A stretch of DNA of 64,000 nt from Octopus sinensis (Eukaryota), in NCBI RefSeq assembly GCF_006345805.1, contig NC_043000.1:9052001-9116000 (forward strand), written 5' to 3'. The number at the start of each line of letters is the position of its first letter. The first letter of the stretch is position 1. This document shows, in pieces, positions 5,711-63,436 of the stretch. A program made the position numbers and the translations under genes. A model generated the notes under the pieces. It did no database searches, had not been told where the DNA came from, and saw only the letters and a list, made by a program, of their open reading frames with translations.

Positions 5711-6118
5711 GTTTAGGTGGACTGATCCAATGACAGTGAAGCGTCGTAGATACACGCATAAGGCAATATGGATGACAGGGCCAAACCCAATAAACCTCAA
5801 AACTGATTAGCTGCTACACAATCCACAAGGACATCAACGGGTTCTAAAGGACAAAAACAAAAGCGTTTTCGGTCCTTGTGATAGGTAAAAGCAACAGCTT
5901 TCAGTCAAAGCATAAACTGACAAGAAGTATTAGAAAGGCAAATTTTAGCTGAGCGAACTTATAACGAGAACTAAACTGTTTTACCCACAAAGGTATAATA
6001 AGCTTCCCAAAACGGAAAACAAACCAACGACTTAACGATCAAGATTCCTATGGTCTAACCACAAAGCTAGGCACCTACCAGAGCAGTTAGGTTGTACAGT
6101 TTGACACAACATGGAGAG

Positions 6119-6410
6119 CGACAGCTGCGGGGTACGAGTGACTAACTATTGCAAAATGAACAAAAGTTAGTTAATAATGGAAGTAGTGGAATAAGATACA
6201 GTTTTGCAGACATAAACTAACATTCGCTCGAAATCATCATCATCATCATCATTTAGCGTGGAGAACGGACGCTAAATGATGATGATGATGATGATGATTT
6301 CGAGCGAATGTTAGTTTATGTCTGCAAAACTATCTTATTCCACTACTTCCATTATTAACTAACTTTTGTTCATTTTGCAATAGTTAGTCACTCGTACCCC
6401 GCAGCTGTCG
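6119..6410. repeat. Near-perfect palindrome (~140-bp arms, 9-nt loop) centred on an RTE 3' tail
   Basis: Arms 6119-6259 and 6269-6410 are reverse complements apart from a 2-nt indel and one CAT unit. The centre GGAGAACGGACGCTAAAT(GAT)n is the RTE tail seen at 17734-17772. Confidence 0.95.
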
Positions 6411-17276: not shown

Positions 17277-17467
17277 ATACAAAATGGGACAAGAATGCAA
17301 AACATCCAGACAACTAGGTGATACAGCCGAAATACAAGGATGATCCGGTTCTTGACTGAGGATAGAAAGTTTCGAATGACCTATCCTTGTTTTATCTGGA
17401 TGTTTTGTTGTCCCTTTTTGTATCACCTAGTTGTCCGGATGTTTTGAGTACATGTCCCATTTTGTAT
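17277..17467. mobile_element. Penelope-like terminal-repeat remnant with inverted ~48-bp ends
   Basis: Arms 17277-17325 / 17419-17467; interior CAGCCGAAAT...TCTTGACTGAGGA homologous to 23258-23297; abuts (TA)n. Confidence 0.6.
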
Positions 17468-17733: not shown

Positions 17734-18335
17734 ATCATCATCATCATCATCATCATTTAGCGTCCGTTCTCCATGCTAGCATGGGTTGGATGGTTCAACT
17801 GGGGTCTGTGAAGCTGGAAGGCTTCATCAGGCCCAGTCAGATCTGGCAGTGTTTCTACGGCTGGATGCCCTTCCTAACGCCAACCACTCCGTGAGTGTAG
17901 TGGGTGCTTTTTACGTGCCACCTGCACAGGTGCCAGACAGAGCTGGCAAACGGCCACGAACGGATGGTGCTTTTACGTGTCACCGGCACGGGGCCAGGCG
18001 AGGCTGGCAACGGACACGAACGGATGGTGCTTTTACGTGCCACCAACACGGGGGCCAGACAGAGCTGGCAAACGGCCACGAACGGATGGTGCTTTTACGT
18101 GTCACCGGCACGGGGCCAGGCGAGGCTGGCAACGGGCACGAACGGATGGTGCTTTTACATGCCACCGACACGGGGGCCAGACAGGGCTGGCAAACGGCCA
18201 CGAACGGATGGTGCTTTTACGTGTCACCGGCACAGGGGCTAGGTGAGGCTGGCAATGGACACGAACGGATGGTGCTTTTACATGTCACCGACATGGGGGC
18301 CAGACAGGGCTGGCAAACGGACACGAACGATGATG
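17734..18335 (-). mobile_element. RTE LINE 3' UTR with expanded 60/62-bp minisatellite
   Basis: (CAT)n tail plus TTAGCGTCCGTTCTCCATGCTAGC; seven GGTGCTTTTACRTG-type units at 17903, 17966, 18026, 18088, 18148, 18210, 18271. Confidence 0.85.
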
Positions 18336-22713: not shown

Positions 22714-22848
22714 AGAAATATGTACTTACATATCAGACCAAAAGGGTACGGGCGCTGCTAGATATATGTATATGTAAAAAAATACAAACTGGGACAAGAA
22801 CGCAAAACATTTAGAAGACGATACAAAAAACTTGGACGGGACATTCAA

Positions 22849-22914
22849 ATCCTTCAATCTTCAGTCAAGAACCGGATCATCCTCGCAATTTCGGCTGATT
22901 AATCTTGAGATCGC
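22849..22914 (-). ncRNA. Permuted hammerhead-like motif (copy 2, minus arm)
   Basis: Minus strand GCGAT-C-TCAAGA-TTAATC-AGCC-GAAA-TTGC...TCTTGA-CTGAAGA-TTGAA-GGAT. Confidence 0.62.
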
Positions 22915-23240
22915 TCTGATCTGGCCAGCCCCAAGGAAAAACTAAGCTACGAGCATTAGATTTCTTGGAAAAAGGATCGAATGAATACGAAACAAGGACA
23001 GAAAAACGGACAATGCCGAAAAAGGCATTTTTTTCCAAATACACCAGCTAAACTAAGTTGTACTGTCTATAGTCGTAAGACACCCGCTGTTTTTGTCCTG
23101 TTATTACTATTATTGCTTTTTGTATTTATATTCGTGTGGCATCGTCCGTTTTTCTGTCCCTGTTTTGTATACAGTCGATCCTTTTTCCAAGAAATCTAAT
23201 GCTCGTAGCTTAGTTTTTCCTTGGGGCTGGCCGGATCGGA

Positions 23241-23306
23241 GCGATCTCAAGATTAATCAGCCGAAATTGCGAGGATGATCTGGTTCTTGACTGAAGATTG
23301 AAGGCT
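23241..23306 (+). ncRNA. Permuted hammerhead-like motif (copy 2, plus arm)
   Basis: GCGAT-C-TCAAGA-TTAATC-AGCC-GAAA-TTGC-14nt-TCTTGA-CTGAAGA-TTGAA-GGCT. Confidence 0.68.
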
Positions 23307-24273
23307 TCGAACGTCCCATCCGTATTTTTTGTATCGTCTTCTAAATGTTTTGCGTTCTTGTCCCAGTTTGTATTTTTTTACATATACATATATATACATA
23401 TATATATATATATACACATACATATACAGATTTCACTCACTGGATTCTGGTTATGCTGGGTCACTAGTTTTAAGGGTGTTAGTTCACCATGTCAAACCTA
23501 GTACTAATTTCAGTCAGTATTCATTTCATTATTCCTAGTCATAGAGAAAGATAAAAAGAGTGAGAGACAGACAAATTCTTTACCAAAAACCATTGTTTAG
23601 ACAGGCCAGCTAATCCAAAAAGTGTCTGCTCGATTGTCTTCCAGGTCTCTGGTGTTTACAGTAAAGTGAGAACAATAGGGAACACATGCACACACACACA
23701 TATGTAGTGCAACAAAGCTAGTTATTTGACCCATCCTGATCCGAGTCCATATCTTTGGATAGAATTAGCCAGCCCTTCTGACTTTTCCCTTCTAACAGTC
23801 AAGTGAACGAAGTCCCCTGTCTAGAAATAAATACCACAAAACTCTAACAGAGCACTGCAATTCATGACCCACAAGTGGATGAAGCAAAACTGTCTCTACC
23901 TCAGACAAAGGCAAGCCAATGACAGAGTATCTATCTGGTCCCACAACTTGCTAGAAATAGCAGCAACTACAATCTCTTGTCTAAAATACAAAGGGAAAAA
24001 CATATTGATAATGTAGTATAGATCACAGTAGAAAAAAACCCTGGTATGGTCATGAATGGAAAACCTTCAATCATCATAAGTCTACACTAACAGAGCTGAT
24101 TTGGGACTAAAACATTGGGGGAAAACAGTTAATCTGATACTGCCTCGATGCTGGTATAGGTTGGAGAAGTAAAATAAAGCTCATAAATATTGTCTTGAAT
24201 GTAGTTTAATGTTGGTTAGAGAACATTAATAGGCAATAATGTATGTAAGAGGTAGACACTTGATTCTCTATAC

Positions 24274-38611: not shown

Positions 38612-38852
38612 ATCGCTGTGTGGCCAGAAGTTTGCTTCCCAACCACATGCTTCCGGGTTCAGTTCCACTGCATGGCACCTTGGGCAAGTGTCTTCTACTG
38701 TAATAGCCTTGGACTGAACGAAGCGTTGTGAGTTGATTTGGTGGACGGAAACTAAAAGAAGCCTGTCGTATGTCGAACCCGTGCTAGCACGGAAAACGGA
38801 CGTTAAACGATGATGATGATATATATATATATTATGTAGTGTGTGTGTGTGT

Positions 38853-44819: not shown

Positions 44820-45081
44820 GTGAAAATATGTAGAAAACATATATAAAGGGGAAAGAAATGCCTTCATTTTACATAGCTGTAATATCTTTTTTATAAAAAT
44901 ATATATACATAATTTATGGATGGTAAAAGTCTCGTAAAATGTAGTGAGATCACTACATTTTATGAGGTTTTTACCATCCATAAAATATGTTTATATATTT
45001 TTTTATAAAAAGATATTAAAACTATGTGAAGTGAAGGCATTTCTCTTCCCCTTTTTATATATGTTTTCTACATATTTTCAC
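44820..45081. repeat. Fold-back palindrome (~130-bp arms, 2-nt loop) between (TA)n tracts
   Basis: 44820-44947 vs 44950-45081; centre GTAGTGA-GA-TCACTAC. Confidence 0.9.
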
Positions 45082-55843: not shown

Positions 55844-56231
55844 GGCATAGGCGGAAAACTTGGAGAGTGGCTGCACAACTTCCTAAAAGATAGAAGGCAG
55901 GGGTGTGTGCAATGGAGCCACCTCTAAGGAAACAAAAATAACAAGTGGTGTTCCACAGGGCACTGTCTTGGGGCCACTGCTGTTCATAGTGGCCCTTTCA
56001 GACATGCTCTCGGTTGCTAAGATGGCCACCCTTGCTAGCTATGCAGATGACACAAAAGTCTATCAGGCAATACAAAACCCTGGAAATATTGCACATCTGC
56101 AACGGGAGTTGGATACAATATACAGGTGGGCTGAGGACAACAACATACAGTTTAATGCAAGGAAGTTCCAAGCGCTGCGCTACCGGCACACAAAGCTGAA
56201 CGACATACTGACCGGATGCACTGGCCCGGGA
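55844..56231 (+). pseudogene. CR1-group LINE RT fragment (paralogue of 61691-63436)
   Basis: GKLGEWLHNFLKDR..SGVPQGTVLGPLLF..YADDTK..FNARKFQ; one frameshift. Confidence 0.92.
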
Positions 56232-57002
56232 AGAGTGTTGAGGCAAGATGCTTCGCAGTATCTTTATCGGTACACAACAATGTTAGTCTGCTACGACACT
56301 TGTGCCAGTCCGTATCGGCCTTAAAGCGATGGCGTTTCCCTTGGATAAGCATCAGTGGCATCGAGAGGAGAGACTCTGCAAGAACGAGAAACTGCAAAAA
56401 AGAAAATAAATAATAATAATAAATAATAATGATAAATAAATAAGATAAAAATTCTTTTCTAAACACTGGCATACATATGTAGATGTATGGTCAGTCTTGA
56501 TCGATGATGGCACCTATTTCGCAATAACAATTGAAATATAATTTTTGTGATCACATAGAAAACATATCATATATCATCAGTATGCCACTGTTCGCTTGTG
56601 TATTTGGGAAACCAGATGAGTTGGGAGCTGTGTGACGTATTACAGATTCTTTTAGATGTTGTGCATACTACATACTTGACTGCACCATGATTACATCACA
56701 ATAAAGAATCTTCATGAAATAACTGTAGCAGTACCATATAACTCATTCGAACGTCTTTTTTTATGCTATTATCCCACACTTAAGGCTCCATTCATCTTTG
56801 GATACTATTAGAGTTGCGAAATACCAATCAACAATGGTCTTCCCTTCACTGATGCATTTCATGACATGATAATGGGTTACTCAACTGTCTGATTTGCATC
56901 ATTCTATCTCGCTGTCAATTGTGACTTTGGTATGTCTAGATCCTTGATAGATTCCCTTTAATCGAATACACACAAGCACACACACGCACGCATACACACA
57001 TA

Positions 57003-61607: not shown

Positions 61608-63436
61608 ATTGATTGATTGATTCTAGTTTCAGCTCACGAGCTGTGGCCATGCTGGGGCACCGCCATTTGGTGTTACTACATGGTTTTACTTCACCAATGC
61701 TTTTTAGCAACTGCCATTTGGTGCATGAGAGAGTTCGATGCAGCTGCTCTCATCTGCCCCTCCTGCCGTGAAGTTGGTTCATCTGGGATACCTGACAAGA
61801 AGAGATCCAGTTTCATTTTAAAGACATCTGCATCAACCCCATGCAGGTCTCTTAGGTTCTTCGGGAGGATATTGAAGAGCTGTGGGCCTCGGAAGCCCAG
61901 GCTATCACAGTTTCTTGTCCTACATCTTGATGGCAAATTTGGAGTCCTTGGCACCACGCAGTGGCGCCCAGTTCTGGCATTTGTGTAACTCTCGATGCCA
62001 AAGTTTGGGACAAGTCCTTCCAAGATCTTCCAGATGTATATTATGGCATATCTTTCTCGCCTACGCTCCAAGGAATAGAGTTTTAATCTCTTGAGTCTTT
62101 CCCAGTAGCTTATATTCTGCACAGAGGCTATCTTCTTCGTGTAGCTACGTTGGATCGCCTCAAGTTCTGTGATCAACTTGACACTGGATGGTGACCATAG
62201 CTGAGAGCAATAGTCAAAGTGGCTTAGGACAAGTGTCCTCCAGAGGACCATCATGGTTTCCTGGTCTCTTGTTCTAAAGGTTCTAAGAATCCATCCGGCC
62301 AGTCGTCTACATTTCATTGCCAATTCAGCAACATGTACACGAAAGGTTGCGTCATCACTCATGTAAATACCCAGGTCACGCACTGATTGTGCCTCTGGGA
62401 TTGCAATTCCTCCGGGTCCAGTGTATTCATTGGGTATTGCATTTAGTTTTGCATGCTGATAGCATAAAGCTTGAAACTTTTCAGCATTGAACTGCATGCT
62501 ATTCTTTTCAGCCCACTTGTATATTTTGTCCAGCTCACATCGCAGACGTTTAGTGTCCTCAGGGTTCTGTATTGCCTGTGAAACTTTTGTATCATCTGCA
62601 TAACTTGTGATCGTGGCTCTCTGCGTGGCTGAGGGCATGTCTGAGAGGGCCATTATGAACAGTAGTGGTCCCAAAACAGTGCCCTGCGGAACACCGCTCA
62701 CTATTTGCGTGTTAATGGAAGTGGCCCCATTGGCTACTACCATCTGACTTCTATCTTTCAGAAAGTCATGAAGCCATTCTCCCAGTTTTCCAACTATGCT
62801 AAGATCACGCAGTTTGTGACATATCACTCCATGATCGACTTTATCAAAGGCCTTTGCAAAGTCGAGATATATCACTTCCACATTTGAGTGGTTGAGCAGT
62901 CGTTTCAGCACCCAGTCATAGTGTTGTAGGAGCTGAGTTAAGCAGCTTCTTCCTGGTCGGAAACCATGTTGGGTGTCAGACAGCAAGTCATTTTCTTCAA
63001 GGAAGGTGATCAGTTTCCTTCTGACTATTCGTTCCATGACCTTGCTGATGTGTGAGGTCAGAGAGATAGGTCTGTAGTTCTTGGCCACCGCTCTGCTACC
63101 TCCTTTATGAATAGGGCATATTTTACCTTCCTTCAGTTTTCTTGGAAGTTTGCCAGTTGCAAGGAAGCTCTGAAAGAGGAACTGCAGTGGTCTTGCTAGG
63201 ACTCTCTTACATACTTTTAGGAGGATTGCCGGGAATCCATCGGGGCCAGTAGCTGAGTCTGTTTTCATTTCATCTATAGCCTTTATTACATCGTCTTCCT
63301 TTATATCGATGTAATCTATCGTCGCTGCCTCTGATTTTATATCTGCAGTGGTAAAGAAGTCAGTTGGATTGGTGATTTGTAAATGCCCAAGGGGTGGAGT
63401 GAAAACACTCTTGAATTGCTCATTCAGTATTTCACT
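61608..63436 (-). mobile_element. CR1-group LINE, 5'-truncated, with short 3' UTR and (CAAT)n tail
   Basis: RT ORF, ~70-nt UTR with hairpin CAGCTC-GT-GAGCTG, tail AATCAATCAATCAAT; no endonuclease domain present. Confidence 0.92.
61691..63436 (-). CDS. LINE ORF2 reverse transcriptase (truncated, stop-free)
   Basis: GPDG, NYRPISLTS, QHGFRPGRSC, YLDFAKAFDKV, SGVPQGTVLGPLLF, YADD, DLG motifs; the frame stays open 56 codons upstream of the track Met at 63268 (SEILNEQFKSVF). Confidence 0.95.
   Translation of the reverse strand, partial: SEILNEQFKSVFTPPLGHLQITNPTDFFTTADIKSEAATIDYIDIKEDDVIKAIDEMKTDSATGPDGFPAILLKVCKRVLARPLQFLFQSFLATGKLPRKLKEGKICPIHKGGSRAVAKNYRPISLTSHISKVMERIVRRKLITFLEENDLLSDTQHGFRPGRSCLTQLLQHYDWVLKRLLNHSNVEVIYLDFAKAFDKVDHGVICHKLRDLSIVGKLGEWLHDFLKDRSQMVVANGATSINTQIVSGVPQGTVLGPLLFIMALSDMPSATQRATITSYADDTKVSQAIQNPEDTKRLRCELDKIYKWAEKNSMQFNAEKFQALCYQHAKLNAIPNEYTGPGGIAIPEAQSVRDLGIYMSDDATFRVHVAELAMKCRRLAGWILRTFRTRDQETMMVLWRTLVLSHFDYCSQLWSPSSVKLITELEAIQRSYTKKIASVQNISYWERLKRLKLYSLERRRERYAIIYIWKILEGLVPNFGIESYTNARTGRHCVVPRTPNLPSRCRTRNCDSLGFRGPQLFNILPKNLRDLHGVDADVFKMKLDLFLSGIPDEPTSRQEGQMRAAASNSLMHQMAVAKKHW

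Follow-up and report, generated by a model that had tools for sequence, protein, structure and literature searches.

Within a 64,000-nucleotide stretch of the Octopus sinensis genome (hereafter the window, meaning the whole stretch of DNA that was analysed), we identified a near-perfect 292-bp inverted repeat at positions 6119–6410, in which two arms of 141 nt pair around a 9-nt loop. This palindrome was probably produced by an aborted LINE integration: target-primed reverse transcription would have stopped after ~16 nt of the element, the cDNA would have snapped back on itself and been copied through its own tail into the flanking host DNA, and end joining would have closed the site. The locus is most likely a natural member of a known mechanism class, and an empty site in a relative agrees with the predicted polarity.

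A palindrome of unique host DNA centred on a LINE tail

The anatomy of the locus can be read directly from an alignment of its two arms. From its outer border inwards, the left arm begins with 116 nt of host sequence (6119–6234), an inverted copy of 6297–6410 that agrees with the reverse complement of that segment at 114 of 116 aligned positions; we take it to be the newly made copy. The element part of this copy side (6235–6259, − strand) consists of (CAT)6 (6235–6252) and TTAGCGT (6253–6259), the reverse complement of the tail and the final 7 nt of a LINE. The loop, GGAGAACGG (6260–6268, + strand), is present in a single copy, reads in element sense and corresponds to element positions 8–16 from the 3′ end. 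On the other side, the right arm carries its element part (6269–6296, + strand), made of ACGCTAA (6269–6275) and (ATG)7 (6276–6296), followed by 114 nt of the original downstream flank (6297–6410, + strand), which runs on into 6411 and beyond. Loop and right-arm element part together form an extremely 5′-truncated LINE insertion (6260–6296, + strand), comprising the last 16 nt of the element, GGAGAACGGACGCTAA, and the (ATG)7 tail. The original upstream flank (5963–6118, + strand) meets the outer end of the inverted copy at 6118/6119.

The whole left arm (6119–6259) is the reverse complement of 6269–6410 except for two indels, namely 2 nt near 6199/6331 and one microsatellite unit, and the arms differ by no substitution. 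Inverted cDNA and target sequence are fused at the 5′ end of the element, and the 3′ junction is normal, with the element 3′ end and tail directly adjoining target DNA. Microhomology at the fold point amounts to at most 1 nt. Folded as single-stranded DNA, 6119–6410 reaches −167 kcal/mol, compared with −30.7 ± 3.4 kcal/mol for 100 shuffles (z = −40). Arm alignment and folding thereby confirm the preliminary description of this DNA, made from the sequence alone, in which ~115 bp of non-repeat flank plus (CAT)n are mirrored around a 9-nt loop.

Arms of this kind could instead be the terminal inverted repeats of a multicopy MITE or foldback element, and long-read chimeras, too, can be palindromic; true MITE-like hairpins do exist in the window, for example at 22759–23396. 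We nevertheless consider an origin as a MITE or as an assembly or read chimera very improbable. Across the 2.72-Gb genome (G000), the flank 6297–6410 is found in two places only, and these are the two arms, so the multicopy MITE repeats that the preliminary description had named among the outcomes that would refute its reading were not encountered. No target-site duplication was detected at the borders either, where the best direct match between left and right flanks scores only 8. On these two grounds, a MITE or foldback DNA transposon was rejected. The centre of the palindrome, moreover, coincides with a LINE tail, and the outer junctions recur in independent reads (below).

We found no host exon near the locus: a Pfam search of 66 of the 136 window ORFs (≥85 aa) returned retroelement and weak zinc-finger matches only. 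No function of the locus is implied.

The LINE family behind the tail

The 25-mer at 6260–6284 (+ strand) matches the tail at 17748–17772 (− strand) exactly, and the earlier reading of the bottom strand of this locus was correct. At up to 3 mismatches, the same 25-mer has 3 matches in the window, where 0 are expected. Our reference for the tail was an ordinary 5′-truncated LINE copy of ~587 nt (17743–18329, − strand), whose 3′ UTR contains ~62-nt tandem repeats and (ATG)n. This copy is 95% identical to the 3′ end of a LINE copy elsewhere in the genome (L031), and 6254–6289 are 97% identical to the 3′ end of that same copy.

Genome-wide, a 13-nt tail anchor occurs in 10,014 places (control, 17) and the exact 25-mer tail in 643. 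As a sample of ordinary copies, we took the first 20 listed exact tails (L019–L038), all on contig G000:C1 and hence non-random. All 20 tails (GGAGAACGG variant) belong to one LINE-type family with a ~62-nt tandem repeat in its 3′ region and simple-repeat 3′ tails, (ATG)4–8. The sampled copies range in length from ~156 nt to more than 1.3 kb, and none of the 20 is 100 nt or shorter.

Upstream of the tail in L031, ORFs matched Exo_endo_phos_2 (E = 4e-7), RVT_1 (E = 1.2e-14) and a PHD-like finger, and in a second copy (L033) RVT_1 and PHD lie directly upstream of the tail. The ORFs are interrupted in both copies, and five more copies are collinear into the same ORF region. Judging from these domain matches, the tail is that of a LINE predicted to encode an AP-type endonuclease and a reverse transcriptase. 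The RTE clade named in the preliminary description is a putative assignment, the family being recognisable here as a LINE by these two domains and its simple-repeat 3′ tail. For 8 ORFs next to the tail copies inside the window, Pfam returned no family. In octopus, an RTE-class LINE whose 3′ UTR is rich in repeats has been reported (PMC9115989); the tail motif had no match in the 8 supplementary files of that report that were searched.

Several features of ordinary copies were recorded alongside. The (ATG)n tail is directly followed by (AT)n in 11 of the 20 sampled copies, which suggests an endonuclease preference for TA repeats, and one copy (L028) has a 14-nt target-site duplication. The last ~35 nt of a SINE copy at 38640–38820 match the LINE 3′ end and tail and are followed by (AT)n, suggesting a SINE–LINE pair with a common tail.

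Outer junctions in independent reads and an empty site in a relative

We compared the 6119–6410 locus with other read sets; the remaining 21 tail palindromes described below rest on one assembly. In runs X2, X4, X6 and X3 (organism labels B, C and D; studies P2, P5 and P3), unitigs span both outer junctions, covering 5700/5963–6148 and 6381–6612/6643 with no other letters. Each of these unitigs joins exactly 30 arm letters to unique flank, the bridging rule being 31 letters. We attribute the 30-letter limit at the edge of the inverted repeat to unitigs that would end at k−1 in a k = 31 graph. Among these short-read unitigs, no independent contig across the microsatellite and the loop centre was seen. 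In run X9, guessed to be RNA, a depth-2 contig covers 5963–6128 only. The palindrome structure is not solely a product of this assembly: its outer junctions are found in four runs from three studies carrying three other organism labels, which also argues against a chimera.

A further relative, organism E, lacks the insertion in two samples from two studies (X14 record 1 and X17 record 8). Its contigs are collinear with the window up to 6118, then hold 28 letters and resume from 6307 onward; to the right, they remain collinear over 6307–6612/6621, that is, past 6411 and with the right-arm orientation kept. Left arm, loop and 16-nt element piece are missing from these contigs, in which the alignment is masked at 6269–6306 and the 28 letters are unread. 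With a flank divergence of ~3.7% (17 of 462 positions), organism E is a more distant relative than labels B, C and D.

Since the loop reads in element sense on the + strand, the right arm is predicted to be the original, and organism E agrees. The preliminary description had likewise foreseen an orthologous locus with a single copy in right-arm orientation, continuous with 6411 onward, and this is the arrangement found in both samples. Some details call for additional assumptions. The simple model predicts ~10 letters where organism E has 28, so that a target deletion of ~18 nt, a pre-existing repeat or a change specific to E must be assumed; the 28 unread letters could provide room for a pre-existing (ATG)n or other sequence. 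Organism E also has two extra letters at 6330 which, as far as the alignment is trustworthy, match the length state of the left arm and not that of the right. The copy would thus predate a 2-nt loss in the original arm.

The empty site could also be read in the opposite direction, with an ancestral palindrome from which organism E deleted left arm, loop and tail. Long palindromes whose spacers are short are known to be prone to deletion, and the 28 unread letters could hold a remnant. In two samples, however, such a deletion must have taken out the inverted copy together with the element piece and nothing else, with the right arm and both flanks still collinear; the 16-nt piece, the 21-nt tail and the stretch of 10 nt that ends at 6306 would also not fit into 28 letters. 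An old palindrome also fits poorly with arms that differ by 0 substitutions when the flanks have diverged by ~3.7% from E. We therefore give loss in organism E hardly any weight compared with a gain by snap-back in the lineage of the window.

Tail-centred palindromes recur in the genome

To look for palindromes centred on the same tail, we searched the whole genome for tails-out pairs of exact 13-nt anchors with 0–210 nt between them. This count, proposed in the preliminary description, yielded 24 places, while reversed-pattern controls gave 0 in all 7 spacing bins. Eight places have 0–30 letters between the anchors, two have 31–60, three 61–90, two 91–120, one 121–150, five 151–180 and three 181–210. 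By our own arithmetic, which assumes uniform placement and ~5,000 anchors per strand, ~2 tails-out pairs would be expected by chance. The 24 places correspond to 22 loci once a locus assembled twice (C8888 and C12764) and a tandem pair are each merged.

The geometry of these loci is narrow in one dimension and broad in the others. Loops measure 9–18 nt in 18 of the 22 loci, a joint outcome with a chance of 3e-13 under uniform landing. One locus with diverged arms (L044) has a loop of ~12–14 nt by eye, another folds at a natural palindrome of the element, CATGCTAGCATG, and two have loops of 113 and 170 nt. Fold depth, the number of element letters copied before the turn, varies from ~16 to ~190 nt across loci. 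At 12 of the 22 loci, the mirrored sequence continues from the tail into 15–311 nt of host flank (116, 214, 67, 47, 44, 15, 47, 26, 37, 71, 45 and 311 nt, of which the 214-nt and the second 47-nt flank are of low complexity). At the other 10 loci, either the copy ends inside the tail or the flank, being a TA repeat, does not allow a judgement. The landing positions (7, 8, 10, 10, 10, 26, 27, 34, 35, 46, 47, 48, 74, 79, 79, 88, 88 and 96) include 10 pairs within 1 nt, where 5.1 are expected (P = 0.037, or 0.08 when one possibly related locus is left out), which is only a hint that landing positions recur modestly.

Individual loci show further peculiarities. In L008 (G000:C18:49315939–49315983), where 67 nt of unique flank are mirrored, the loop contains a run of 10–11 C foreign to the element, which could be an untemplated polymerase addition or a homopolymer error of the assembly. 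The locus with the 170-nt loop, L047 (G000:C13296:18188–18403), lies on a small contig, and its flank is mirrored perfectly over 311 nt. Unless this reflects a fault in the assembly, no other locus of the series has a copy-back as large. The merged tandem pair, L003/L004 (G000:C3:14525611 and 14525927), has identical palindrome centres 316 nt apart in (TAA)n-like low-complexity DNA, which suggests that a tail palindrome, once formed, underwent tandem duplication. In L015 (G000:C9498:86123–86213), there is no mirrored flank, and ~99 nt of the left flank recur as a direct repeat beyond the right tail, 123 nt further to the right; this may be a target duplication of exceptional length.

These loci bear on two other ways of making a tails-out pair. 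Under the first, a variant of twin priming, both ends of the target DNA prime on the tail RNA and the two cDNAs are joined head to head. Such double priming could account for the 10 of 22 loci at which no flank is mirrored, among them L015 with its ~99-nt direct flank repeat. For 6119–6410 it is refuted by the 116 nt of unique host flank, which it has no means of copying in inverted orientation. Two independent cDNA lengths should also give loops of any size, yet 18 of 22 fall at 9–18 nt, and we regard this route as highly unlikely.

Twin priming of L1 in its usual form, which Ostertag and Kazazian are said to have described in 2001, reportedly yields an element inverted in its 5′ part between normal flanks, with a target-site duplication. 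The present locus resembles it in that an inversion would be made during a single LINE integration, and differs from it in that host DNA is mirrored. Because the inverted segment includes 116 nt of host flank, L1-type twin priming was rejected.

The second route has two steps, an ordinary but extremely truncated insertion (16–22 nt plus tail) followed later by a replication or repair template switch at the resulting short inverted repeat. It would yield an identical final sequence, replication template switching is known to make inverted duplications with short spacers, and organism E shows both parts absent, not their joint arrival. It nonetheless requires two rare events at each of ~22 loci, and the substrates it needs, copies of 100 nt or less, number 0 of 20 among the sampled ordinary tails. 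In addition, every palindrome is tails-out, with the copy arm adjoining non-element DNA. The tails-facing arrangement within 30 nt was found in one place only, as two long independent copies in a TA repeat. A two-step origin is accordingly unlikely in our view, and we favour a single aborted integration with cDNA snap-back.

A putative mechanism of cDNA snap-back

How might an aborted integration have produced the arrangement at 6119–6410? The endonuclease of the element would nick the bottom strand at about 6296/6297, and reverse transcription primed on the (AUG)n tail would stop after only ~16 nt of element sequence. The cDNA would then fold back on itself at its 3′ end, leaving a 9-nt loop, and self-templated extension, by the reverse transcriptase or a host enzyme, would proceed through TTAGCGT and the tail for ~115 nt into the downstream flank. 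At 6118, the end of this copy would be connected with the end of the upstream DNA, no target-site duplication being formed, and second-strand synthesis would fix the palindrome. From the sequence we infer the enzymatic steps, the choice of polymerase and the origin in a single event.

Before second-strand synthesis, the junction of tail and flank exists only on the nascent bottom strand, so that a one-step origin requires self-templating. Extreme truncation also appears to go with fold-back, because none of the 20 ordinary copies is as short as 100 nt. The polarity given by organism E, the link between truncation and inversion, the exclusively tails-out layout, the narrow range of loops and the continuous range of copy-back lengths all point to a cDNA 3′ end that turns close behind itself and is then extended to a variable degree.

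The preliminary description had already proposed aborted target-primed reverse transcription, fold-back and copying into genomic DNA, and this remains the best explanation we found. The cause that it gave for the turn, a hairpin predicted between TAGCGT and ATGCTA, was not supported. Fold points do not cluster at this hairpin, as it had expected; with fold depths from ~16 to ~190 nt, the hairpin is unused at the other loci. As DNA, it is worth −0.9 kcal/mol (z = −1.2), and 20 of 200 shuffles fold equally well. It further requires an additional T-to-C change, which is unnecessary if a 16-nt cDNA simply turns back with a 9-nt loop. We thus rejected the TAGCGT/ATGCTA hairpin as a general cause of folding, its thermodynamic contribution being negligible. 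The element's own palindrome, CATGCTAGCATG, reaches −2.9 kcal/mol, and the RNA 3′ end folds no better than shuffles.

Other repeats in the window

The window holds several repeats besides the tail palindrome. A foldback or MITE-like element of ~640 bp (22759–23396) has 259-nt arms that are 94% complementary around a 120-nt spacer and lies in TA-rich DNA. A shorter inverted repeat (17277–17467) has a similar terminal sequence, and the two probably represent one MITE family. At 44828–45070, a hairpin of ~240 bp has a 2-nt spacer, arms that are 82–89% complementary and TA repeats on both sides. Two reverse transcriptase matches were also noted, a 581-aa open frame with RVT_1 (61694–63436, − strand; E = 8e-31) and a second RVT_1 fragment (55887–56321, + strand; E = 1e-11); both are other retroelements, unrelated to the palindrome.

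Discussion

The fold-back route itself is not new, as the mechanism class is known from R2 and L1. In R2 PRINT insertions in human cells, snap-back is a named class of 5′ junction: before the junction forms, further DNA synthesis starts from the cDNA 3′ end, with the cDNA itself or, in fewer cases, rDNA close by as the template (PMC11371274, PMC11331408). Our locus resembles the R2 snap-back of Zhang et al. (2024) in having reverse-complemented element or target sequence on the 5′ side, in the R2 case often of 5′-truncated inserts (PMC11371274). As the method is presented there, R2 PRINT uses engineered templates at rDNA in cultured cells, with junctions scored from reads, whereas we describe natural, germline-fixed LINE insertions at dispersed sites. 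In these LINE insertions, copy-back runs through the whole tail to reach 15–311 nt of unique host sequence, with loops of a stereotyped 9–18 nt.

For somatic L1, short foldback inversions of target DNA have been reported (n = 3, 0.3%), with 52–220 bp of extra synthesis (PMC10191854). This 'process C' of Nam et al. (2023), as outlined in that report, resembles our case in producing rare inverted target DNA, which is ascribed there to additional DNA synthesis during resolution (PMC10191854). Its frequency of 0.3% is similar to that found here, ~22 loci against ~10,000 tails. In the octopus, as distinct from process C as outlined, the downstream flank is copied by way of the tail and the element 3′ end. 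A literature search for natural germline cases found the R2 and L1 reports and no description for a cephalopod LINE.

The 6119–6410 locus is a clean natural example of cDNA snap-back in LINE integration, with an outgroup empty site confirming its polarity. Together with the other loci, it makes up a first series of 22 loci within one genome, which sets bounds on the geometry of the process, with loops of 9–18 nt, fold depths of 16 to ~190 nt, and copy-back that ends anywhere from inside the tail to 311 nt into host DNA. A class known from the laboratory would therefore have consequences in the germline, with LINEs able to turn unique host sequence into long, perfect palindromes. Such palindromes are potential fragile sites and, if transcribed, sources of long dsRNA; the locus described here would give a perfect RNA hairpin of 141 bp.

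A more far-reaching proposal, which we put forward tentatively and think more doubtful than not by a wide measure, is that ~1 in 500 integrations of this LINE family ends in a stereotyped turn-around of the cDNA, with a 9–18-nt loop and almost no microhomology, and that the family thereby systematically makes perfect long hairpins with unique host DNA. If so, this geometry would carry information about the enzyme responsible for the turn. A link to cephalopod RNA editing is hypothetical; were the proposal true, a coleoid genome would be supplied with ready-made long dsRNA for ADAR editing or small-RNA production wherever such DNA is transcribed.
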